From assembly GCA_043778555.1 (NCBI GenBank), contig JAYWFY010000045.1, forward strand, positions 1 through 59,254: a stretch of 59,254 nucleotides of DNA, written 5' to 3'. The translations under genes were made by a program, and so were the position numbers. Below the pieces are notes generated by a model. It made no database searches and was not told the DNA's origin. It worked only from the letters and a program-made list of their open reading frames with translations. This stretch comes from a bacterium. GTDB lineage: Bacteria; Patescibacteriota; JACMRA01. Each line of letters opens with the position of its first letter. The first letter of the stretch is position 1. Of this stretch, positions 880 through 59,013 are shown in pieces.

Positions 880-3390
880 TTAGTTTTGGGTTTCGTTATC
901 AAAAAATACTTTTATTCCGCACTTACAGTTTATTTCAGTGTTCGGGAATGGATAGCCAATAGAAAATGGTTTATTATAATCTACAATCTCGCCATAAATT
1001 GCTTGGTGGTTTAGTCTTCGCTCTTTGGAGATACTTGGTAGCCATTGTTTTTTCTTTGCTCCAAATTCTCCAGCACTAATTGCACTACCTGCTCCAAAAG
1101 CTGTGATTGCTTCGTTGCTGGCTATTAGCTCCGAACGGTTGTCAATATCCACTTCAATAGCTTGATTTATTTCAGCTTCAAAATCAGTGTTACTTGTTAG
1201 GTTTTGGTAGGCTCGGTCAATTATTTCTATCAGATTATTTCGTGTCGTGTCCAAAATTGAATTTTCAAAGCCTGGATTTCGTACATCTTTAGAATTAGGC
1301 TTGTTTTCTAGCCCTGAAAGGCTGTTTAGTCTCTGAGCGGTGTATTCGTCAAAAGAATTATTAACCGCTGTTCTATCGTCCTGTGTAAAGTCGTTTTTTC
1401 CTTGTTCTTTGGCTTGTCTCAAAACATCCTCTTTTCCGAGATTTAGATAGTACAAAAATGAGTTAGAAATTGGTAACCACGCTTTTTTGTCATCTTGAAC
1501 TAAGATATTTACATAATCAGCTATATTTTCTGAAGTGTAGTCAATCTCGTCTTCAAACCCTGCTTTTAGTTCTACATTTTTTTTGAGTGGAGATAGGTCA
1601 ATTTTGTACATCTTTTTTAGAATGCCTTTGACCTGATTTTTGAGTTCGTCTTTTTGGGTTCCAAGTAATATCTGATCGCAAAGTGAGTATTCCCTATTTT
1701 GACCTTTGACCGAATCCAAAAAGCTAAACAGTTTCTTTTTTTGTTGAACACTGAATTTTGGCAAGTCATTTTTATTAAACTTAGAGTAGCCGTTAACCTT
1801 ACTTTCTGATTCCTTTTGATCTTGATCCGTCCAAACTTCTTTTGCCGTTTCTAATAGTTTTCTTTTGCCTGTGTCTTCTTTTAGCTTTGGTTCGGTAAAG
1901 GTTAATGGCTCCACATCAACTGCAAATGGTTTTAAGTTATTGATAATTTTTACAGGTTCGGCTTGTTTTTCTAGTTTGGTTTCAACTGGATTTTCAACTA
2001 TGATTTCTTTTTGTTCTGGTGCATTTTGGTCTTTAATTTCGTCTTCTACACTTTCTCGCACCGTCTGGACCAAAGTTTCATCGTCAATCTTCTCGTCCAC
2101 ATTATCCGTCAAGCCCTCGTCTGAGTTACCTTCTTTGAGTTCTCCTTCTTTAATGACCGTCAAATTGTTTGGCATTACCCTAAAATTATCTTCTTCGGTC
2201 GTTTCCTGCTCATCAATTCTGTACCCTAGCATTTTGACCTGTTTAGCTGTCCAGATACCGTTTTTGTAGCCTTCGGTGTATCTGTTGATAATATCACTAT
2301 CGCTTTCCACCTGCATTTGTACCGCTTTTGCAGTATGTTCTGGATAGAATATAGGTAGTACCCAAGAATTGTAAAGCTCCTCAAGCTTCTTTTGCATTTG
2401 AACGATTGCAAGATCCTTTAGATTCTGTCGGTGTGTGATTTGCTCTCCTGAGCCCAACGCTCCAGTGTTCGGATTTCCAAAGAAAGTAGGCACGCCATAG
2501 ACCTGGTAGATACTGTCTTTGATATATTGTTTGTCCGCAATACTTAGTCGGTGTTCAATGCCTTGTTTGATTTGCTCTATTTTGTCCACTCCATAAACTA
2601 CGCTTGCCTTATATCTATTTTCTGATTTGACCAATTCGGATTCCATTCGTTTCAAGATTGACAATTCTTCTAAATCTAAACCATCTTTGGCAAAAATAAC
2701 CGTGCCAAAAAAACTATTATTCTCCAGAAATTTGTTGAAGTTTTGGTTGTCGAGATTGAGCGTGTTTAATTCATCGTAAAGCGTATTAAGTGGAGACAAA
2801 CCAAAATACTGCGAGCTGATATTGGCTTTTTTGAATACCTTGAACGATCCAGCATTTACTTTTTTGCTGATAACTTCGCCTGCATAAATCCACCAAAAAC
2901 TATCAATCTTAAATCTCTTGGCTTGGAACAATGAAACTTGATGAGCTGGAATATTCCTTAAATATAATTCTTTTTCTTCGTTCTCAAAGATTGTCGGCAT
3001 TGCCTGACCATAAACAAGGATATTCTGACAAAATAGCTCGTTAAAAGTATGGTAACCATCAGCCAACTTTTCTGTAAAATCCAGCTCAACTTCCTCTTTA
3101 TCTTTGTTGTAAAATTTCAAACCTAAATTGGTTGTGATTTTGGTTATAAGATCAACGCAGCTGACAACCTCGTCAAAAATCTGGTAATAATTCCAGTATG
3201 TCCAGAACTTAGGAACTTGAATTGTCGACTTTATGCTGTCATCTTCATCAACCGCTTGCCTGACTTCAAGATTAGTATTCTTTGCCGTTTTATTTTCTCC
3301 ACCAAATCTAAACCTGTCATAAAAATTTGACGGCGATACTCTGCTAATTGCTTTCGATTCAAGCTGTTTTGATTTGTTTTTTTTTGGCAT
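880..3390 (-). CDS. Portal protein fused to a MuF/SPP1-gp7-like minor head domain
   Basis: 836-aa ORF just downstream of terL. It has a portal-sized N-terminal part and an acidic low-complexity linker (EGELKEGNSDEG..DEIKDQ). The C-terminus ..ERRLNHQAIYGEIV..NTEINCKCGI resembles the Phage_Mu_F signature. Confidence 0.7.
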   Translation of the reverse strand: MPKKNKSKQLESKAISRVSPSNFYDRFRFGGENKTAKNTNLEVRQAVDEDDSIKSTIQVPKFWTYWNYYQIFDEVVSCVDLITKITTNLGLKFYNKDKEEVELDFTEKLADGYHTFNELFCQNILVYGQAMPTIFENEEKELYLRNIPAHQVSLFQAKRFKIDSFWWIYAGEVISKKVNAGSFKVFKKANISSQYFGLSPLNTLYDELNTLNLDNQNFNKFLENNSFFGTVIFAKDGLDLEELSILKRMESELVKSENRYKASVVYGVDKIEQIKQGIEHRLSIADKQYIKDSIYQVYGVPTFFGNPNTGALGSGEQITHRQNLKDLAIVQMQKKLEELYNSWVLPIFYPEHTAKAVQMQVESDSDIINRYTEGYKNGIWTAKQVKMLGYRIDEQETTEEDNFRVMPNNLTVIKEGELKEGNSDEGLTDNVDEKIDDETLVQTVRESVEDEIKDQNAPEQKEIIVENPVETKLEKQAEPVKIINNLKPFAVDVEPLTFTEPKLKEDTGKRKLLETAKEVWTDQDQKESESKVNGYSKFNKNDLPKFSVQQKKKLFSFLDSVKGQNREYSLCDQILLGTQKDELKNQVKGILKKMYKIDLSPLKKNVELKAGFEDEIDYTSENIADYVNILVQDDKKAWLPISNSFLYYLNLGKEDVLRQAKEQGKNDFTQDDRTAVNNSFDEYTAQRLNSLSGLENKPNSKDVRNPGFENSILDTTRNNLIEIIDRAYQNLTSNTDFEAEINQAIEVDIDNRSELIASNEAITAFGAGSAISAGEFGAKKKQWLPSISKERRLNHQAIYGEIVDYNKPFSIGYPFPNTEINCKCGIKVFFDNETQN

Positions 3391-3414: not shown

Positions 3415-3444
3415 ATTTTACACTGTACCCCCTAAAGTTTGCAA
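3415..3444 (-). promoter_or_regulatory. Late promoter copy c (upstream of portal)
   Basis: Minus strand: TTGCAA-actttAGGGGGTACAGTG-TAAAAT, with an 18-nt spacer. Confidence 0.55.
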
Positions 3445-3924
3445 TTTCTTTAGATTAAATTTAGTATATTCTTTATCTCCAACTTTTTTAACTATAATAG
3501 TTTTAAATATTACTCTTGCCTGAAAATTATAAAAATCGTTAATAATCAAAGAAAATACTTGAATTAGCTTAGTAACATCACAACAATAATACTTGACCCC
3601 AAACTCAATATTTAGCTCGAATTGATTGGATCTCATATAATCTTTTTCTAGTTCTGATATTATTGGTAATTCAGCGATTACAAGAGCTTGATATTCTCTA
3701 TATTCCTTTTTTTGACTAAAATAGTCGTTTCTTCTGAATGCTTCATGTGAGCTAAGTGGTCTTAGGTTTATGTAGATCTCTCTAGCCAACAACGGGTTTT
3801 GCATCTCCTCAATTAACCTTTTTTTGAGTTTGGCTATTCTAGTGGTGCTTTGAGTTGGATTATTCCTTGCCTTCTTTGCCACGGGGTGCTGGGTTAAAAA
3901 TTCACTGATAGTAATTTTGTTCAT
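3418..3924 (-). CDS. Hypothetical protein between terL and portal
   Basis: 168-aa ORF tightly packed in the late operon. No motif recognised. Its 3' end overlaps a late-promoter copy. Confidence 0.55.
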   Translation of the reverse strand: MNKITISEFLTQHPVAKKARNNPTQSTTRIAKLKKRLIEEMQNPLLAREIYINLRPLSSHEAFRRNDYFSQKKEYREYQALVIAELPIISELEKDYMRSNQFELNIEFGVKYYCCDVTKLIQVFSLIINDFYNFQARVIFKTIIVKKVGDKEYTKFNLKKLQTLGGTV

Positions 3925-3936
3925 TGGATTTAATTG

Positions 3937-5187
3937 TTAATTTTGATCTGGGAATAATAGTTTAAGTTTGGCGGTTCGGTCGTTTTTAGGCTTTGTAAAG
4001 TGTTGCAGTGAATAGCGTAGGGAATCACAACAATCATCCAAAACCTTTACAGGTTCATCTTTAATACCATCTTTATTTGTTGCCCATTGGTAGTTTTCAA
4101 CTTCTTTAACTAGATTTTTTGACCCTGCTACGATTTTTAATTTGTAGTTTTGCATGGCTGTGATTCCTGCCAATACTGAACCCGCTCCTTTGTCCGCTGC
4201 CTTTGCCTTGTATCCTGCTTTGACAAGGGTTTCAATTAGTTCTGGTCTGGCTCCATCACAGATAATTGGTATAGTTTTTTCAATCTTTAGGGCATTAAGT
4301 TCAGCAACTAGCATATCGCCAGTCAAACCCCTCTTGTAGAGCATTTCTTGTCCGTAAAGTTCCTTGACTTCCTTATCAATTACCCCAGTCTTGACCATCG
4401 CTGTAGGGTGGTTAAACCCAAAATCCAAACCATAGCAAAAGTCAATGTCTGGAAATTCTGGCACGGTGTCATATTCAGGGAATATCAAGCCCTCTAGTTT
4501 TTGACCCCATTCGCCTTGAGCGTAAATTTTGTAATAATTTGGATTGGTTTTGGCAAAGTCTTCAAGCGTTTTGACATAGTTTTTGTCTAGGAATTTGTTG
4601 TCTTTGTAAGTAGTTTTCAAAATAAAATGATCATCAGGTAGCTTGTCGTGAATCTCTTTTTTGAGCCAGTGATTGACTGAGATTGGATTGTACATCAGCG
4701 TAATTTGCACTTCTTCAAAGCCTCTTAAACGGAGTGACAATTGGTCTAGCTTGTCTCGGCTCTTGATATCCGTGGCTTCTTCAATTACAATTCTGTCCGC
4801 TCCAGAGATAGATTTGACCTTTTCTGGGTCGTCCAAACCTAGAAATATAAATTCCACCTCGGTTAGTTTGTTGATTACGGACAGTGGCGAAACTGTAAAA
4901 GTAAAGTATTGCTGGATATTCCAATCGTTAATTAGTGATTTGATTTGGTTGTAGCAAGAGTTCTTGAGTGTTGAGTAATACTCACGGATTACCAGCGTTT
5001 TGCGTCCTTTGCGTCGATAATCAAAAGTCAAGGCAATTTCTTTTTGAAACTCAAAGACAGATTTTCCACTTCCAGCCGAACCCACAAGGTGCAAAAACCT
5101 TGCTTTATTCTCAAACAAAGGAATATATACTGAGTTGTACAGATCAGGATTAGAAAAATCAAAAGTTTGTTTTTGAATATTTGGCAT
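3937..5187 (-). CDS. terL: Terminase large subunit
   Basis: 416 aa with Walker A-like LVGSAGSGKS and a C-terminal nuclease-like acidic region (ICDGARPE, LDDCCDSLRY). It sits upstream of the portal gene. Confidence 0.85.
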   Translation of the reverse strand: MPNIQKQTFDFSNPDLYNSVYIPLFENKARFLHLVGSAGSGKSVFEFQKEIALTFDYRRKGRKTLVIREYYSTLKNSCYNQIKSLINDWNIQQYFTFTVSPLSVINKLTEVEFIFLGLDDPEKVKSISGADRIVIEEATDIKSRDKLDQLSLRLRGFEEVQITLMYNPISVNHWLKKEIHDKLPDDHFILKTTYKDNKFLDKNYVKTLEDFAKTNPNYYKIYAQGEWGQKLEGLIFPEYDTVPEFPDIDFCYGLDFGFNHPTAMVKTGVIDKEVKELYGQEMLYKRGLTGDMLVAELNALKIEKTIPIICDGARPELIETLVKAGYKAKAADKGAGSVLAGITAMQNYKLKIVAGSKNLVKEVENYQWATNKDGIKDEPVKVLDDCCDSLRYSLQHFTKPKNDRTAKLKLLFPDQN

Positions 5188-5830: not shown

Positions 5831-7435
5831 TTAGTTTAATTTTTCTACATCAAAAGGTTCTCCGTTGAGTGTAAGTTTGTAAGGTTTGTCATTTTTGGTT
5901 AGATAGACTGTAGCTCGTTTGATTATTACTTCTACATATACAGGATCTAGCTCTAACCCAAAACATCGCCTGCCAGTTTGAATTGAGGCAATAAGTGTTG
6001 AACCTGAACCAAGAAAAAAATCAATGATTAGCCCAAACTCTGGACAACTAGATTTTATTGCTCGTTGACACAGCGGCAAAGGTTTTGGTGTGGCGTGGTT
6101 ACCTTCATCTCCTTGTTTTGCGTGTCTTTCAAAATGCCAAACATTGTTCATATTCTCGTGGGTGTTGTTAAAGTATGCTCTGGTTGAGTTATATTCTGTT
6201 TGGAGTTGATTGTATTCTTTTTTGAAAGCATCTATGTTGTTTTGTTTTGCGTATTGTTGTAGTTTTAAGTAATTTTGAGCAGCAATAAGTGTCCATTGAC
6301 TTCCTGTTGGGCTTATATGGTGAGCATACATTCCTCCTCCACTAGTTTTAAGACCAAGTGCTGTGTTAAATGAATTTGAGTTAGCTATTTGGCATTTTAC
6401 ACTTTCATTGTACAAATAATCCCTAATCGGCTCCCATCCTTCAAAATAGTTATCAGCGTTGTTATTAGATCCTTGCACTCCACTCATAACAAAAAGACAT
6501 TTTTCATCTGCTATCGCAAAACTTCTAGTATTTTCTGAATTTTGACCTTGACCATGTGCTTTGTCCCAAGTTATCAAATTTCTAAAAGTTGCTTTTTGAT
6601 CCGATACAAGTGGCTTAATAATTTGGCTATAAATGTCCATCAGTGGTTCATCAATACCCCAGCAATACCACGAACCATTGTCTTTGATATATTGCCACTG
6701 TAGGAATATCCAGTCTTTATTAAATTGTAATAGGTCTTCATAGTTCATATTGTCGCCAATGACACCATCTTTTTCTTTCTTCATACCATAGGGGGGATCG
6801 TTGTGTGCAAGGTCAGCTTTTTGTCCGTTCATTAACTTTTCTACATTGTCAACAACAGTGCAATCTCCGCACATTACACGACTTTTTAGACCATCCACTT
6901 CTAACTCAAAAATATCCCCAATTTGAACCAACTTTGCCTTTCTATCTGGAGGGGGTGTATCATTTATTTCTTCATCTGGTAATTGCTCGCTTTCTAGTTG
7001 CTCCAGCATAAAATCCAAACTTCCCATACTCACTTCTTGCAAAGCCATTTCTTGCAATTCCTCTAAATCAAAATCAAAGCTCGTAAAATCTGCCAAACTT
7101 GTCTGAGTTATCTCGCCGTGCTGTGAATTGATCAATAGTACAATCTTTTTGGCTTCCTTGATATTTTTGGCTTCAAAGAATAAAACAGGCAAATCTGGTA
7201 TCGTATAGCCTTCTTTTGCAAGTTCTGCAAGTGCTTGCCTTCTACCTGTTCCATCTGCTACATAATCTTTCCAAGCCAAAATGGGAGTGGTAAATTGTGA
7301 TTTTAGGATTGACTTTTTGAGTTTGGATACATCTCTGTTCTCGTTAGATTTCAAAGTGTTAAAATCCATTTTGACAAAATCTGTGTACGGTACAAATTCC
7401 AGTTTTTGCTTTCTGATAGATATTGTTTTTGACAT
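5831..7435 (-). CDS. ParB-like nuclease domain / DNA methyltransferase fusion
   Basis: The N-terminal part is ParB/Srx-like (..VADGTGRRQAL..). Motif IV is NDPPYG and motif I FFLGSGST lies near the C-terminus, the beta-class order of an N6A/N4C methyltransferase. Confidence 0.8.
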   Translation of the reverse strand: MSKTISIRKQKLEFVPYTDFVKMDFNTLKSNENRDVSKLKKSILKSQFTTPILAWKDYVADGTGRRQALAELAKEGYTIPDLPVLFFEAKNIKEAKKIVLLINSQHGEITQTSLADFTSFDFDLEELQEMALQEVSMGSLDFMLEQLESEQLPDEEINDTPPPDRKAKLVQIGDIFELEVDGLKSRVMCGDCTVVDNVEKLMNGQKADLAHNDPPYGMKKEKDGVIGDNMNYEDLLQFNKDWIFLQWQYIKDNGSWYCWGIDEPLMDIYSQIIKPLVSDQKATFRNLITWDKAHGQGQNSENTRSFAIADEKCLFVMSGVQGSNNNADNYFEGWEPIRDYLYNESVKCQIANSNSFNTALGLKTSGGGMYAHHISPTGSQWTLIAAQNYLKLQQYAKQNNIDAFKKEYNQLQTEYNSTRAYFNNTHENMNNVWHFERHAKQGDEGNHATPKPLPLCQRAIKSSCPEFGLIIDFFLGSGSTLIASIQTGRRCFGLELDPVYVEVIIKRATVYLTKNDKPYKLTLNGEPFDVEKLN

Positions 7436-8020: not shown

Positions 8021-8347
8021 TTACTTTTCGCTTTTAATACCTTTAATCCTATCTTTAAACCCTTTGCCAAACTGTGTTTTTACAGCATTATATGCTGGTA
8101 TAGTCATTGGTTTTTTTGTGGCAGGATTATACCCTTGTCGTTGTTTTCTCAGCCTTTTTTCAAAAGTACAAAAGTTGATGAGGTGGACTGTATTGCCCAG
8201 CGTTACTTGATAGACAATTTCACCTAGTAAAGTTTTAATAAATCCTTTGACTGTGTGTTGAGTTATCGCTTGCGACTGAGTATTATCTGGATTTTTTGTA
8301 GCTATTATGGCTGCAATATCTTCTATTGTTTTTTGGTTGAGATTCAT
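8021..8347 (-). CDS. HU/IHF-family DNA-binding protein
   Basis: 108 aa. ..GNTVHLINFCTFEKRLRKQRQGYNPATKKPMTIPAYNAVKTQFGKGFKD matches the HU beta-arm pattern (R.GRNP.T....I.A..V..F..G..lK). Confidence 0.75.
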   Translation of the reverse strand: MNLNQKTIEDIAAIIATKNPDNTQSQAITQHTVKGFIKTLLGEIVYQVTLGNTVHLINFCTFEKRLRKQRQGYNPATKKPMTIPAYNAVKTQFGKGFKDRIKGIKSEK

Positions 8348-8841: not shown

Positions 8842-9048
8842 TTATTTGTTTATAATATCAAGGCTTTTTGCACCTTCAATTGTACCAATGTGCATACCTA
8901 GCCACATTTTTGCTTCTTGAAGTTTGGTAATCACAAGCGATAATTCTCTTGAGCCTGTTTCTTTTCTTAGCTCGTTAATTAGATTTTGAATTTCAATTCT
9001 TTTTTCTGTAAATTGAGTTGTTGTTGGATTGTTGTTAATATTTTGCAT
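8842..9048 (-). CDS. Hypothetical early protein
   Basis: 68-aa ORF in the early operon. Confidence 0.5.
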   Translation of the reverse strand: MQNINNNPTTTQFTEKRIEIQNLINELRKETGSRELSLVITKLQEAKMWLGMHIGTIEGAKSLDIINK

Positions 9049-10236: not shown

Positions 10237-10614
10237 TTATAGTTTTTTAATTGCTTTGATTAGCTCTTCTAAGATTGTATCTGTTAGACCATCAAGAGCA
10301 ATATTTATTTTGTAATAATCCTTATTTGACAAGTTACAACGACCCCATCTTGGATCTTCCCGCTCGTCCTTTTCTTGGCTTGGTAAAGTCTTATCCACCC
10401 ACTCACTAAAGCGGTTTTGGTTAAGGTCGATTGCAGGCTTTATTAAATAACAGTCTTCACTTGCATATCTAAAATATTCAATTTGAAAATCGTCTCCTTT
10501 CATATATTGAATTATATAATTATCTGACTCCCACATCGGCAAGCCTTTAGCTTGCACAAGTTCTGCGAGGTCTAGTTGAAGTTTTAGGTTGGTTTGGGTT
10601 GGTTGTGTGGGCAT
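10237..10614 (-). CDS. Hypothetical early protein
   Basis: 125-aa ORF with a 2-nt gap to rusA. Confidence 0.55.
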   Translation of the reverse strand: MPTQPTQTNLKLQLDLAELVQAKGLPMWESDNYIIQYMKGDDFQIEYFRYASEDCYLIKPAIDLNQNRFSEWVDKTLPSQEKDEREDPRWGRCNLSNKDYYKINIALDGLTDTILEELIKAIKKL

Positions 10615-10619
10615 AATGA

Positions 10620-11006
10620 TTATATTTTTTTAATTTCTTCGATTATCATTTTTGGTACTCCAGTTTCATGTTTAACCACATGACTATACACATTTTTGGT
10701 ATTCTTATGTAAATACTCCAAAATATCACGGTAAGTCTGGTAAGCAAGCGGATTAGCACTACCTGCCCACATTTTCGTTGAAGAGGTAATAAGTTTTTCT
10801 TGACACATTTGTTCAAGTACTAGCATTTCTTCATAACTGCATTCTTTTTCTATCTTGTCATTAATTTTTATCTCTTGATTCTTATATTGAACTTCATCAA
10901 AAAGTGGTGTGAATTGACCACATACTGCCCTGTGTACTAGCTCAACTGAGTTAGCTATGAGGTGTAATTGTTCTTCTGTAATTGTTATTTGGTAAATTTT
11001 TGACAT
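10620..11006 (-). CDS. Hypothetical early protein
   Basis: 128-aa ORF, tightly packed. Confidence 0.55.
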   Translation of the reverse strand: MSKIYQITITEEQLHLIANSVELVHRAVCGQFTPLFDEVQYKNQEIKINDKIEKECSYEEMLVLEQMCQEKLITSSTKMWAGSANPLAYQTYRDILEYLHKNTKNVYSHVVKHETGVPKMIIEEIKKI

Positions 11007-11010
11007 AGGC

Positions 11011-11574
11011 TTATAGTTTTTTAACTTCTTCCAACCCAGCGATTGCCGAGTCGTATTCTGATTTTAAGTAGATTTTGCCGTGGACTTTAATTGTCTGAGG
11101 CTCTGATTCTGGTGGTTCAACACGCTGGACGGCGTAGTAGGGAAAGAACATATAGCATAACTCATATGAGATACCATAACAGGTATCATGCGTTTCTGTA
11201 ATTTGGCATTCTTGACCTATTATGTTAGGTTGAGTTATTAACCAACTTTCATAATCTTCACATTTTTTAGCCTCCTCAGTAACCACAACCCAATCCCCAA
11301 CCGCATATACCTCAGGCTTGACAGTAGCTGGTTCTACTAGCTCGAATCTGCCTTTGTAGTTGTCTCGCCATTCATACCAAGCAGAGTAGTCAATTCCCTC
11401 AATATCGCCTTGCCCGTACCATTTTGTTGATACATAGCCATTTTTAAGTGGTAAAAATATCAAGACTTGCACTTTACCTTCTCCCCACGGATTACTCTGA
11501 ATTTTGACATGCACACCGACTTTTGATTCCTGTACGATTTTTTGTAGTTGTCTGTAAGTTACAAATTTTGACAT
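11011..11574 (-). CDS. Hypothetical early protein
   Basis: 187-aa ORF, tightly packed. Confidence 0.55.
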   Translation of the reverse strand: MSKFVTYRQLQKIVQESKVGVHVKIQSNPWGEGKVQVLIFLPLKNGYVSTKWYGQGDIEGIDYSAWYEWRDNYKGRFELVEPATVKPEVYAVGDWVVVTEEAKKCEDYESWLITQPNIIGQECQITETHDTCYGISYELCYMFFPYYAVQRVEPPESEPQTIKVHGKIYLKSEYDSAIAGLEEVKKL

Positions 11575-11600: not shown

Positions 11601-11951
11601 TTAGTTTGAGATTCCCAAAAAAGATTTGATTTTCTGGAGTATGTTTGGTTTAGCAAATTGGTCACGCCTGATCTTTTGTTCATTCCAAAAGTCTTGATCT
11701 CGTTTTGAGGTTTGAAGATTTGTAAGTGTTTGCTCAAACCATTTACCGTGTTCGTCTTCCATGATTTCCGCTGCAATTTCCTCTGTGGTTTTGACACCGA
11801 CAACACTTGGCATCTGATTTTTGTGATTTTCTGGGAAAGGTTTGGTTGAAGTTTTTTTGTAAGTTGCTCCGTAATCGTAATCACTGATTTCAATTACTGA
11901 TTTGTTTTTACGATTGGTTTGAGGAGTTTTGGATTTGTTGGATTTGGTCAT
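11601..11951 (-). CDS. Hypothetical early protein
   Basis: 116 aa. Preferred over the overlapping 11588..11893 frame, whose product is K/Q/S-rich and looks like junk. Confidence 0.5.
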   Translation of the reverse strand: MTKSNKSKTPQTNRKNKSVIEISDYDYGATYKKTSTKPFPENHKNQMPSVVGVKTTEEIAAEIMEDEHGKWFEQTLTNLQTSKRDQDFWNEQKIRRDQFAKPNILQKIKSFLGISN

Positions 11952-13405: not shown

Positions 13406-14365
13406 TTAGTTTAAAGTTAATTGGTTTGTAGTAGGGTCTCCGTTTAAAATGGAACACTTTAGCATGCCTAATTTCTTCAAAAGCCAGTTTTGACCTTTCT
13501 CAGTTATTAGAGTTTGATATGATACTTTTTTCTCACCATATTTGTCTCTCCAAGGTTTAGGAATTACTTCAAAATATTTGTCATCTACATAATTTTGGTA
13601 TGGGACATTATTCATTCTCAAAATATTTAGATCTCTGCACTTCTCAAAAAGTGTATTGCGACCAAAAGGTAATCTCATGAGTTGAGCTGCTAGAGAAAAG
13701 TCAAAAGCATCTTTGGATTGTAGCAAGTGATCTGCAAATTCTACCTTTGGAGCGTCAACTTGTATCTTTTCTAGTAGTGGCTTCGTTTCTAGCTGTACAA
13801 GGGTCTTGTATGCCGTGGCAACTTCTGCACTATCATTAGAAAAAAGTTTGAGTAATAGAGCTTGACGTTGGTCTACGACTGGTTGAATAATTTGTTTGGA
13901 CTTTTCCTCACAGGCTATAAAATACTTACGAGCCTCTTTACCTTTTTTGGTTTTGGACACCATACAGATTTCTTTTGCCATATCAATTGACAAGTAATAA
14001 TCTGTTTTGTTGTTTTCATGCGGTTTCTCAAATTTGAGAAAGTCTTTTTGACTTGCAAACTCATAATCTGTGATCAGTCTTTTAATCCAATCTGCAAATT
14101 TAGTTCGAACTTGTAAAAATTTGTGTAAATTCTCACCGTCAACTCTACCATTTGGTAAAACTTGGATGAGTGATAAGTCAACTTCTTGACTAGATTTATT
14201 ATTTTGTTCAGTATTAGATAAATATCCTATACTAATTTCAGCTCTCTCGTAGGAGCTGTTTTCATTGGGCTGGTTTGGTGTGAACATAAAATGTTGGGGG
14301 GGTTTATAATATCCTATACTTTTTGAACCGATTAAGATTCTTAAAAAGCTAGTTGCAATTCTCAA
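13406..14365 (-). CDS. Antirepressor (AntA/B-like N-terminal part plus KilA-C/ANT C-terminal part)
   Basis: ..HKFLQVRTKFADWIKR..DYYLSIDMAKEICMVSKTKKGKEARKYF.. and ..ADHLLQS..FSLAAQLM..FGRN.LF..CRDLNIL... The track start is a TTG. An ATG at about 14287 (MFTPNQP) is more likely. Confidence 0.6.
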   Translation of the reverse strand: MRIATSFLRILIGSKSIGYYKPPQHFMFTPNQPNENSSYERAEISIGYLSNTEQNNKSSQEVDLSLIQVLPNGRVDGENLHKFLQVRTKFADWIKRLITDYEFASQKDFLKFEKPHENNKTDYYLSIDMAKEICMVSKTKKGKEARKYFIACEEKSKQIIQPVVDQRQALLLKLFSNDSAEVATAYKTLVQLETKPLLEKIQVDAPKVEFADHLLQSKDAFDFSLAAQLMRLPFGRNTLFEKCRDLNILRMNNVPYQNYVDDKYFEVIPKPWRDKYGEKKVSYQTLITEKGQNWLLKKLGMLKCSILNGDPTTNQLTLN

Positions 14366-30088: not shown

Positions 30089-31756
30089 TCACACTTTCAA
30101 ACTCATAATCACACCGACCCGCTCTTGACAAAACTGTAATAAATAATCAACCTTAAAAGGTTCAATATTGACCCGCTCAGTTGCACCATTGACAAATTCA
30201 TCATCTAATTCACCCCAAAAGTCCCTTAACAAAGGGCTTTTTTGTTGGTTCAATACAACCACTTTGTCATCTTTCTTATAGACTACAAATCCTTCAGGAA
30301 AAAGCAAGTTCAAAAGCTTTTTTTTAGTGGTATTATTGGCTTGATTAAAGCGTTTGTCAATTTCTATAGCTTCATCCAAACAAAGGTTCAATACATCTCC
30401 GACTTTGGCTTTTGGCTCACTAGATAATTTAATCAATTCTTTTTTGTATTCTAAAATCTTATTATTGTTTTCTACAGATTTTTTTTCAATAGCTTTCACC
30501 AAAGCTGGAGAATCAACAAGTAATATTTTTGCCACTGCCGTTTCATTTTCGATTTCAATATCTTTAATTTTTCGTTTAATCTTATCAATTTCTTTTTGGT
30601 TTTCAGCTTGTATATTTTTAGCTTTCTCTCCGAGGTATTTTTGCAGGTATTGAATAAATTTCAATGACAATACTTGTTTGGACAAATAGTTCAAAACTTC
30701 AAGCTCTATGAGTTCAGAGCGTATTGTCTTTGATTGCTGGTTACAGCCACGAGTGGGGCAAGCGTAATATTGCCACTCCAAAACACTCCCATTTTTTAAT
30801 GTTTTCTTTTTTAATTGTGTTGTCATGAAGTTTTGACACTCACTACATTTAGCGCAGCGTTTAAATATAAATTGATTATTGTTATTTTTCATGTATGCTG
30901 ATCTTTGAGATTTATTAATTCTTTCTAATATTTTTAAGTAAGTGTTTAAATCGATAATAGGCTTGTGAAGAGCATTTGACTTTGGGAAATTTGTTTTTTT
31001 GTCTACATTCTTTGGGTCGTACATATCTACGCCTTGGTTGGGTTTGTGGATAAATCCAGCATACAGAGGATTGGTGAGCATATCTTTGACATCCTCTTGT
31101 CTCTTGTTTATTCCAAGGCTTCTCAGATACTTTTGAACCTCTGCGCAACCTGAATAATTCCCATTAGCAAAGTCTTCTAGTAGCTCTTTAACTACAGGGG
31201 CTTTATCATTTTGTTGCATTATTTTAAGTTGTGATTTACCACTATTGTCATAGCCAAGTGGTGAGCCATAAAACCAATAACCTTGCTGGAGTCTCGCTTT
31301 TGACCGCTCCTTGGCTGTAGTAAGGTTAGATTTACGCATAAACTCATCTTGCCCACCCATCATCGTGAGCATTAACCAGCCAGCGTCAGTTTTCATATCT
31401 ACACCGTGCAGGTTAAAAAATTGAACATCATAATTATAGTCTTTTGTCAGTGTATCTACTGTAGAAAGCAGGAATATTACATCCCGAGCTAGCCTTGAAG
31501 TAGAAGGAAACAGCACCGTCAGATTTGGATTTTCTTTGCATTTTACTAGCAACAAATCAATCCCCTCTCGCTGTCTATTTCCTCCGCTAATAGCTTCATC
31601 TTGGAATGATTCCATGATCATATACCCATATTTTTTGGCATATTCCTTGCACTCTTGTAGCTGTGAACTCAGACCATTACCTTCGGTGACTTGCTTCCGT
31701 GATGACACTCTGCAATAGGTAAAACAGGGCTTTAGTTCTTGGACTTGGTCGGACAT
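30089..31756 (-). CDS. int: Large serine recombinase (integrase)
   Basis: 555 aa. N-terminal resolvase motif ..FTYCRVSSRKQ... It also has a recombinase domain, a zinc ribbon (CAKCSEC..YYACPTRGC) and a C-terminal coiled coil. Confidence 0.85.
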   Translation of the reverse strand: MSDQVQELKPCFTYCRVSSRKQVTEGNGLSSQLQECKEYAKKYGYMIMESFQDEAISGGNRQREGIDLLLVKCKENPNLTVLFPSTSRLARDVIFLLSTVDTLTKDYNYDVQFFNLHGVDMKTDAGWLMLTMMGGQDEFMRKSNLTTAKERSKARLQQGYWFYGSPLGYDNSGKSQLKIMQQNDKAPVVKELLEDFANGNYSGCAEVQKYLRSLGINKRQEDVKDMLTNPLYAGFIHKPNQGVDMYDPKNVDKKTNFPKSNALHKPIIDLNTYLKILERINKSQRSAYMKNNNNQFIFKRCAKCSECQNFMTTQLKKKTLKNGSVLEWQYYACPTRGCNQQSKTIRSELIELEVLNYLSKQVLSLKFIQYLQKYLGEKAKNIQAENQKEIDKIKRKIKDIEIENETAVAKILLVDSPALVKAIEKKSVENNNKILEYKKELIKLSSEPKAKVGDVLNLCLDEAIEIDKRFNQANNTTKKKLLNLLFPEGFVVYKKDDKVVVLNQQKSPLLRDFWGELDDEFVNGATERVNIEPFKVDYLLQFCQERVGVIMSLKV

Positions 31757-43271: not shown

Positions 43272-43838
43272 TTAGGTTATTTGGTTTATATCGATTGATA
43301 TTAGTTCTGTGTCCACTTTAATATTTTCAAACTTGTTGCCTAAAGAATCTACGATCTGGAATACTTGATAATACTTTCCAACTGGTAGGGTCGCCGTTAC
43401 AGTTTGATCAATAGCAACCGTGATTCGGTTTGTTGGTTGGTTCGGCTGCAAAGTATAAGTTTGGAGAGGATAAACAATATCTATAGCTTGTGGATTATCA
43501 ACTTTGTTTTTGACAATTAGCATTTGGAGCTGATAGCCTGTCCAGTCAAAGTCGTTGTTAGATTCTTTGTTGGTATAGATCATACTGTTTTGACCAGTTC
43601 CTGATAGTTTTGTTAGAACTCCTTTAGGATAAAGGTTGTCAATAATGCAATTACTCACACATTTTATTTTGTTGCCTGCTATTCCAATTACCCAAAAAGT
43701 ATAGTTTTCAGATTTATAGCTTGCACCGATTTGTGGTAATAAATACAAGTTTTGAATATCAAAAACAAAGATTTTAGACGGCATTTTTGGTCTGATTATT
43801 CTCTGATAGGGCGAACCTCGAATGATAATGTTTGACAT
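43272..43838 (-). CDS. Hypothetical structural protein (leaderless start behind a late promoter)
   Basis: ATG at 43838 (MSNIIIRGSPYQ..) lies 8 nt downstream of the TAGAAT of a late-promoter copy. The longer track start would place the promoter inside the CDS. Confidence 0.5.
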   Translation of the reverse strand: MSNIIIRGSPYQRIIRPKMPSKIFVFDIQNLYLLPQIGASYKSENYTFWVIGIAGNKIKCVSNCIIDNLYPKGVLTKLSGTGQNSMIYTNKESNNDFDWTGYQLQMLIVKNKVDNPQAIDIVYPLQTYTLQPNQPTNRITVAIDQTVTATLPVGKYYQVFQIVDSLGNKFENIKVDTELISIDINQIT

Positions 43839-43846
43839 CTGATATA

Positions 43847-43876
43847 ATTCTACACTGTACCCCCTTATAATTTCAA
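43847..43876 (-). promoter_or_regulatory. Late promoter copy b
   Basis: Minus strand: TTGAAA-ttataAGGGGGTACAGTG-TAGAAT. The ATG lies 8 nt downstream. Confidence 0.55.
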
Positions 43877-43883
43877 CCAAATT

Positions 43884-43902
43884 AAAAACCCCCATTTGGT
43901 GG
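43884..43902 (-). terminator. Weak hairpin plus U-run after 43903..44307
   Basis: Minus strand: CCACC-aaat-GGGGG-TTTTT (one mismatch), directly upstream of late promoter b. Confidence 0.4.
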
Positions 43903-58251: not shown

Positions 58252-58809
58252 TTATTCTTTGTTCGCAAGTAATTCCCAAACTGGTTTTCGGACTTGAACA
58301 CTAGCTTTCGCCTCTGGTTCTTTGTCTTCGACTTTTGGAGTTTCCTCGACTTTTGGTTCTGCTTTAGCCTCTGGTGCTTTGACCATACACGCTTTGATTT
58401 CTTTTAGCTCCTTACCCATATTTTCCATCTCTGCTTTCATTTCTGAACACATAGATTTCAATTCTGAATAATCTTTAGCTTTGGCTTCTTCGACCTTTGA
58501 TTTTTTAGCCATTTCTTCCTCTGATTTAGTTTCAGCGACTACTTTTGCCTTTTTGGCTTCGGTTTCTTCGCTTGATTCCTTTTCATCGGCTACTGGAGCT
58601 TCTTCGGTGATTTTGCCATCTGTCTCATACTTTCCTTCCGCTGTTGGCGTAAATGTCAAAATGTATTCTTTGGTGTCTCCTTCAAGTTGAAATTCAACCT
58701 GTACAGATTCATCTTTTAGAACACAGATCTCAACACAGTCCGTCAAAACTGCTTCTGGATTAGAAGTTGATAAAGATTGCTTTAGAGCGTTAATAAGTTT
58801 TTCGTACAT
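58252..58809 (-). CDS. Scaffolding protein
   Basis: 185 aa, highly acidic and K/E-rich helical (..EEMAKKSKVEEAKAKDYSELKSM..). It lies between the protease and capsid genes. Confidence 0.6.
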   Translation of the reverse strand: MYEKLINALKQSLSTSNPEAVLTDCVEICVLKDESVQVEFQLEGDTKEYILTFTPTAEGKYETDGKITEEAPVADEKESSEETEAKKAKVVAETKSEEEMAKKSKVEEAKAKDYSELKSMCSEMKAEMENMGKELKEIKACMVKAPEAKAEPKVEETPKVEDKEPEAKASVQVRKPVWELLANKE

Positions 58810-58843
58810 AAATAATGCGAACTTTTTATTTTCGTTCTTTGTA

Positions 58844-58873
58844 ATTCTACACTGTACCCCCTTGTAATTTCAA
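58844..58873 (-). promoter_or_regulatory. Late promoter copy a (upstream of scaffold/capsid)
   Basis: Minus strand: TTGAAA-ttacaAGGGGGTACAGTG-TAGAAT. Confidence 0.55.
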
Positions 58874-58884
58874 TAATTTTGCAC

Positions 58885-58906
58885 AAAAAAAAGACCCTTG
58901 ATGGGT
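58885..58906 (-). terminator. Weak hairpin plus U8 after the protease gene
   Basis: Minus strand: ACCC-atcaa-GGGT-cTTTTTTTT, upstream of late promoter a. Confidence 0.4.
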
Positions 58907-59013
58907 TTTGATACTTTTTGGCTTTGTTTAATTACTTTGTAATTTCAAATAATCCTTTTTGTAGCTTCACTATTACTTGATCGTTTGGTTTGTCGATTTT
59001 GACATTCACACAC

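Follow-up and report, generated by a model that had tools for sequence, protein, structure and literature searches.

Three predicted late promoters of a Patescibacteriota phage share a 13-nt spacer block that is replaced by other sequences in related phages

The window analyzed here (the whole 59,254-nt stretch of DNA, i.e., the complete contig JAYWFY010000045.1 of assembly GCA_043778555.1) closes as a circle of 59,156 bp through a 98-bp terminal overlap, encodes a terminase, a portal, a capsid-like protein, a tape measure, a 1515-aa fibre, a beta-helix-like spike, a CHAP lysin and a serine integrase, and is the complete genome of a temperate phage. The same phage was found integrated in other assemblies, where homology to it ends at window position 30183, and since the prophage flank matches contig C63 of the very MAG the window belongs to at 99.9% identity over 6.1 kb, the organism of that MAG is the host of the phage. 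The host MAG comprises 964 kb (a ~1-Mb organism) with a GC content of 35%, and its RpoC is at most ~50% identical to named sequences, the top matches including Saccharibacteria and Patescibacteria MAGs. In the integrated copies (L100/L101, 11497-13100), the end of homology at 30183 falls inside the gene for the serine integrase, at its 3' end (window 30089-30260), and the integrase is 555 aa long on the circle and 529 aa long when integrated; on host contig C63, the prophage adjoins serS.

The virion genes of the phage appear to form three operons (portal/protease; scaffold, capsid, tail and tape measure; distal tail, fibres, spike and lysis), and a preliminary description of this DNA, which had placed promoter-shaped sites before groups of virion genes, was right in that each of these operons is headed by one such site on the minus strand. 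Pa (58844..58873; -35 box TTGAAA at 58873-58868, block at 58862-58850, -10 box TAGAAT at 58849-58844) precedes the scaffold and capsid genes of the head-tail operon, the first of which is a scaffold-like gene (58252..58809, minus strand, 185 aa) with a 35-nt leader that is common with the related phage L007. Pb (43847..43876; -35 box TTGAAA at 43876-43871, block at 43865-43853, -10 box TAGAAT at 43852-43847) heads the distal tail, fibre, spike and lysis genes, starting with a 189-aa gene (43272..43838, minus strand) that is predicted to be leaderless. Pc (3415..3444; -35 box TTGCAA at 3444-3439, block at 3433-3421, -10 box TAAAAT at 3420-3415) heads the portal gene (880..3390, minus strand), the product of which has a MuF-like C-terminal part, and lies at the very end of the 168-aa gp168 ORF (3418..3924, minus strand), within its final eight codons and stop codon, so that the non-conserved C-terminal tail of gp168 is written by Pc. 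In the related phage L011, Pc is likewise found within the C-terminal codons of gp168, and as the gp168 tails of the two phages are unrelated, it should be the DNA signal, not the protein, that dictates this sequence. The terS and terL genes are without the motif.

What Pa, Pb and Pc share is the 13-mer AGGGGGTACAGTG, which is present in three copies, on the minus strand only, and each time as TTG(A/C)AA-N5-AGGGGGTACAGTG-TA(G/A)AAT (TTGMAA-N5-block-TARAAT), i.e., within a spacer of 18 nt. The exact minus-strand copies of the 12-mer GGGGGTACAGTG lie at 3421-3432, 43853-43864 and 58850-58861, with ~0.0014 copies being expected per genome from its composition (both strands), and a 15-mer in three copies, as found in the window, was seen in 0/200 order-1 Markov simulations. 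The full pattern AGGGGGTACAGTGTARAAT returned three matches in the whole MAG, all of them in the window contig, and no degenerate copies (≤4 mismatches in the 13-mer, followed by TAnnnT) were found besides the three known sites; the earlier statement that there are three minus-strand copies and none elsewhere thus holds in the exact, whole-MAG and 4-mismatch scans. That copies a (58844) and b (43847) are identical over ~30 nt, as had also been stated, is accurate as regards near-identity (31/32) and inaccurate as regards full identity, a single C/T difference being present at 58865/43868. In copy c (3415), the block is unchanged, the differences lying in the -35 box, the 5' portion of the spacer and a single -10 position, and the block is indeed kept more strictly than a spacer would require. 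It spans about -25 to -13 relative to the predicted transcription start, is asymmetric and oriented with transcription, and contains just 4-nt palindromic fragments, without a convincing dyad; an Rfam scan of the window gave no match. Both the motif and its placement are direct observations.

The promoter usage of the host, likewise observed directly in its own genome, offers a yardstick for these sites. Pairs of TTGACA and TATAAT (≤1 mismatch each) occur 176 times at N17 and 127 times at N18, as compared to ~66-108 times at other spacings, and the ATG of a long ORF lies 6-9 nt past the -10 box at 43/303 of the N17/N18 sites vs. 6/363 of the spacing controls (counted over all host MAG contigs except C45, the window), which indicates that the host uses classical TTGACA-N17/18-TATAAT promoters and makes many leaderless mRNAs. 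Such leaderless mRNAs seem to be common even though the host 16S rRNA ends in CCUCCU. The hexamers previously called sigma70-like are, therefore, just that, the host showing the same -35/-10 pairs in excess at N17 and N18, and the 18-nt spacing, which had also been pointed out, is ordinary in this host, given the N18 excess and the 46/104 leaderless promoters with an 18-nt spacer. These 104 host leaderless promoters have a C at position 5 of the -35 box in 72-78% of cases, a mean spacer GC of 0.26-0.28 and, in a single case (1/104), a G4 or C4 run in the spacer. The other intergenic promoters of the window phage (early/moron) mostly have a perfect TTGACA and AT-rich spacers, and its late promoters have TTGAAA or TTGCAA at -35 and a spacer GC of 0.5 with a G5 run.

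When the minus strand of the 16.7-kb late region is ranked by promoter match, Pa and Pb come out near the top (10/12 vs. the consensus). At Pb, 8 nt separate TAGAAT from ATG 43838, which is in frame with the ORF earlier drawn from 43895, and the gene most likely starts at 43838 instead; as Pb thus matches the host leaderless geometry, TAGAAT can be placed as a true -10 box.

Directly upstream of Pa lies a hairpin followed by U8 (AAAACCCAUCAAGGGUCUUUUUUUU; 58885..58909, minus strand; ACCC/GGGU stem, z -1.9) that is likely an intrinsic terminator closing the portal/protease unit, and a hairpin with a U-run is present directly upstream of the Pa position in all three phages compared (window, L007 and L011), which suggests that the portal unit ends there, that the head-tail unit starts afresh and that Pa must, therefore, fire on its own. 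A second hairpin with U5 (CCACC-AAAU-GGGGG; 43884..43902, minus strand) directly upstream of Pb is weak (z -0.18, with 80/200 shuffles folding equally well) and doubtful as a terminator, and no terminator was found upstream of Pc. The earlier proposal of terminators before two of the copies is consequently plausible for copy a and doubtful for copy b, and the associated picture of a late region divided into terminator/promoter units applies before the scaffold gene, in 3/3 phages, while being weak at Pb and without a terminator at Pc. Further upstream of Pa, window positions 58937-59013 hold the ~26 3'-terminal codons of a gene whose L007 counterpart (3569-4033) encodes 154 aa; the remainder of the gene appears to have been deleted in the window phage.

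Two related phages, whose portal homologues are 62% (P0001) and 36% (P0002) identical to that of the window phage, enabled a comparison of three phage lineages at two of the three sites (portal and scaffold), as the contigs of the relatives end short of the fibre region and the early genes. Both relatives (L007/L008 and L011) have TTGnnn-N18-TAnAAT before the portal gene and before the scaffold gene, as the window does, so that Pa has an orthologous promoter in L007 and L011, and Pc in L008/L007 and L011. The promoters of L007/L008 read TTGCAT-CGTGAGTCTAGTGATAGA-TACAAT, the two copies being identical over 36/36 nt, and those of L011 read TTGACT-AAAAAAGAGGGTTGCAAT-TATAAT and TTGCGA-TAGAAAGAGGGTTGCATT-TATAAT, with the block AAAGAGGGTTGCAWT common to both. 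A gapless alignment of the seven promoters has TTG and TA.AAT kept and the block uniform just within each phage; TTG at -35 and the 18-nt spacer are found in 7/7 promoters of the three lineages, and the remaining -35 bases vary as they do in the host. Comparing the copies within the window phage or within L011 shows a constant block beside a variable -35 box and a variable 5' portion of the spacer. The blocks of L007/L008 and L011 are absent from the window phage and the host. When pairs of promoter-shaped sites that agree in the 14 nt beside the -10 box were sought blindly, exactly the L007/L008 and L011 pairs were returned, and no such pair was found in more distant phages.

In the alignment of the window phage with L007, the leader of the scaffold gene and its start codon coincide, which establishes the -10 boxes of the two as homologous. 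The leader itself (window 58810-58843; L007 4135-4162) is conserved and forms a small GAAC/GUUC hairpin that, in this genome devoid of Shine-Dalgarno sites, might serve as a signal for translation.

As the portal and scaffold promoters occupy orthologous positions across phages with 36-62% portal identity, promoters at both sites predate the split of these phages, with the spacers having changed together within each genome. The swap of the block between related phages is directly visible in the aligned promoters, and it is most simply explained by a phage-encoded protein that recognizes the block and evolves along with it.

The search for the motif in other phage genomes, which the preliminary description had proposed, gave no further carrier in IMG/VR, the relatives holding other blocks; no further relatives turned up when IMG/VR was scanned with the motif, with the leader of the scaffold gene, with the portal protein or with the portal alignment, nor by portal alignment in GTDB genomes, by megablast in a phage collection, or in 27 genomes of the order of the host and 400 genomes of its phylum. 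A metagenome scan added just the distant L012, whose repeated motif differs: this phage, with a portal 35% identical over half its length, has ATTTGACAAAAsCTAG before its portal gene and another late gene (6715-6735 and 11620-11640), i.e., a different design of a repeated late signal. The terL relatives L096-L098 proved to be mosaic; they have other head modules and lack such a promoter pair. In a genome of the same genus as the host (G013:C7; L004 1476-1530), GGGGGTACATTGTAAAAT is a 17/18 match to copy c; it is intergenic in that host, downstream of a dnaK-like gene and flanked by G5/C5 hairpins and a repeated TAAAATTCCCCCT unit, and, being without TTG at -35 or promoter architecture, was treated as unrelated.

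The reading that we favor, and to which we would give an even chance, is that Pa, Pb and Pc are late promoters for the host sigma factor that also carry a 13-nt site for a phage-encoded protein switching all three, most likely by activating them. Host RNA polymerase with its primary sigma factor would read the promoters via TTG at -35, the 18-nt spacer and TAnAAT, and the 13 bases at about -25 to -13 would be a sequence-specific, asymmetric site for a protein of the phage's own, the block thus probably being the docking site of a phage regulator. Because all three promoters carry the same site, a single protein would switch them together; as a late activator produced from the early lytic operon, it would also offset weak unaided opening. 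We infer this binding and activation, like the transcription starts, from the sequences, and a positive sign is favored because the -35 boxes are sub-consensus, because a G/C-rich block beside the -10 box should weaken unaided opening and because the block is absent from the immunity region, the repeated element of which is a different one.

Factor-dependent late promoters of phages are already known as a class, and the design proposed here would be new as a variant of it. The late promoters of phage P1 have no known -35 box, carry a 9-bp inverted-repeat element and need the host protein SspA. What they share with those of the window phage is the presence of several late operons, each with a -10 box and a phage-specific element just upstream of it, and the use of host polymerase (presumed in our case), whereas the window promoters keep TTG at -35 and have an asymmetric block, and no Lpa-like protein was found among the candidate ORFs. 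Lpa of P1 binds a conserved sequence centered at -22 next to the -10 box (PMC3152322), the center of the block in the window phage being at about -19, and this precedent is a further reason for favoring a positive sign. The middle promoters of T4 read with MotA and the late promoters that RinA/ArpU/Ltr control in temperate phages of Gram-positive bacteria are similar in combining host polymerase and a phage protein with a short box upstream of the -10 box into one regulon; the MotA box, however, replaces the -35 box, at -30, and RinA sites are poorly defined and lie upstream of terS, whereas terS and terL of the window phage are without the motif, and no homologue was detected. MerR-family promoters likewise have the site of their regulator within the spacer between -35 and -10, as is putatively the case here, but they are dyad-symmetric, with 19-20-bp spacers, unlike the host-normal 18-nt spacer without a convincing dyad in the window.

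No protein that might recognize the block could be named. Scans of the phage ORFs against Pfam, PHROGs and NCBIfam gave no recognizable activator, sigma factor or antiterminator, with the ORFans remaining blank, and no small Zn-finger proteins were found in the phage. Besides several ORFans, the early operon (14632 to 5355) encodes an AntA/KilA-C protein (13406-14365), replication proteins, RusA, an Acb2/Tad1-like protein, an HU/IHF-family protein (8021-8347), a ClpP-like protease and a ParB-methyltransferase. AlphaFold models of the basic ORFans gp116 (pLDDT 65) and gp168 (pLDDT 51) were too poor for a structure search, and gp168 is an unlikely factor in any case, as it is absent from the L007 phage. 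Two further features of this part of the genome may be mentioned: a 68-aa protein (window 8842-9048) matches the Acb2/Tad1 hairpin domain of anti-CBASS/anti-Thoeris sponges, here in a phage whose host has a very small genome, and three successive ORFan genes (window 10237-11574; 187, 128 and 125 aa) have a common ~20-nt 3' end that encodes (I/V)KK(L/I)-stop directly before the next start codon.

The sign of regulation might also be the opposite one, with the block being an operator for a phage repressor that sits between -35 and -10 and silences the virion and lysis genes in the lysogen or early in infection, which we consider unlikely, albeit worth serious attention. Classical activators mostly have their sites upstream of the -35 box or overlapping it, and a site within the spacer of a promoter that retains TTG at -35 is equally typical of repressor operators; the block is found exactly in the spacer, where repressors usually act, it is asymmetric, 13 nt long and oriented with transcription, the phage is temperate and integrates, and Pa and Pb, scoring 10/12 with normal spacing, might fire without help. 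The repressor of mycobacteriophages L5/Bxb1 has asymmetric 13-bp operators and stoperators, 20-30 sites in all, that are found mostly outside promoters and also at the early promoter. Like these sites, the block is 13 bp long, asymmetric, transcription-oriented, phage-specific and repeated across the virion region; unlike them, it has three copies, in the same register inside promoters, and none (≤4 mismatches) in the switch region. The repeated element of the immunity/switch regions is a different one, an inverted repeat of the TAGATAGT type, so that a second, dedicated repressor would be needed, and the -35 boxes of the three promoters are sub-consensus as compared to those of the early promoters of the phage, both of which speak against an operator and in favor of a site for an activator.

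It is rather improbable that no dedicated factor is involved at all, i.e., that these are constitutive or host-regulated cassettes kept identical by copying, gene conversion or an intrinsic effect of the spacer on promoter strength. Identity extends over the whole cassette both between copies a and b (31/32) and within the L007 pair (36/36), which is what recent copying should produce, and the phage encodes a PD-(D/E)XK nuclease, possibly with a recombinase beside it. The promoters are old, however, given their orthologous positions in phages with portals that are 36-62% identical, and the divergence seen in window copy c and in L011 affects the -35 box and the 5' portion of the spacer, not the block; as the block was kept where the flanking promoter parts changed, copying cannot explain those cases, and it is implausible that gene conversion would have acted on tracts of 15-20 nt that lack homologous flanks. 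An intrinsic effect, for its part, fails to explain three unrelated block sequences.

The notion that the block serves as a loading site for a Q-like antiterminator, which would board the polymerase soon after initiation and make it ignore terminators, is still less probable. The QBE of lambda lies between -35 and -10 of PR', a complete host-type promoter with an asymmetric 13-nt block in its spacer, much as predicted for the window sites; terminators exist within the late region, and specificity varies between sibling phages in both cases. The three promoters of the window phage, as opposed to the one of lambda, nevertheless lack a promoter-proximal pause element and a terminator cassette, there being no hairpin with a U-run between any of them and its first gene, and the ATG 8 nt after Pb leaves no room for a pause cassette. 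A promoter of its own for each unit, right after the previous terminator, would make antitermination unnecessary, and the phage has no Q-family Pfam match. What a Q-like mechanism does fit is the DNA site itself, as Q of lambda binds an asymmetric, non-repeat 13-bp site as a monomer (bioRxiv 10.1101/2022.03.25.485794).

Least probable is a promoter for a phage-encoded RNA polymerase or sigma factor, for all that long, invariant, phage-specific sequences are typical of phage polymerases, that the block differs between relatives and that the block with TAGAAT resembles SP6-type promoters (the lead that was followed and rejected). Within the reach of sequence searches, the phage has no polymerase gene (no ORF with a polymerase signature, no DFDGD motif in six frames, the large ORFs being portal, tape measure, fibre and spike, with the 791-aa ORF a glycine-rich beta-helix-like tail spike), no sigma-70 domain match was found among the ORFs scanned, and all 7/7 promoters retain TTG, the 18-nt spacer and TAnAAT, with the other -35 bases varying in a host-like way. 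Sigma-54 promoters and extended -10 promoters were dismissed as well, as neither the GG-N10-GC spacing of the former nor the TGn of the latter fits the sequences of the window and L011 sites. Of the original suggestion that the block is the binding site of a late activator or of an alternative specificity determinant, the part that survives is a phage-specific site that is swapped in relatives, and the part that, as far as sequence searches can tell, does not is a specificity determinant in the form of a phage polymerase or sigma factor.

Returning to host-type promoters with a site for a phage regulator, a bolder version, which we hold more tentatively, is that phages of this uncultivated host lineage with small genomes have a late regulator of an unknown type, which reads an asymmetric spacer code of ~13 nt in otherwise complete promoters of the host type and has shifted its specificity from one sibling phage to another, along with all the promoters it targets. 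Gene regulation in phages of ultra-small uncultivated bacteria is almost unstudied, and here a late regulon seems to be legible from sequence: three operons, one common code and host promoter rules taken from the host's own genome. The swap of the block at a constant -35 box, spacing and -10 box amounts to a clean natural experiment, which predicts a co-evolving DNA-binding protein. Should the block turn out to be unnecessary, it would be an example of the concerted evolution of short promoter cassettes; should the regulator be found, it would be one that acts within the promoter spacer, possibly offering compact orthogonal promoter/regulator pairs, and if the spacer-code regulator of an unknown type is real, these phages would hold natural sets of such orthogonal regulators and promoters.
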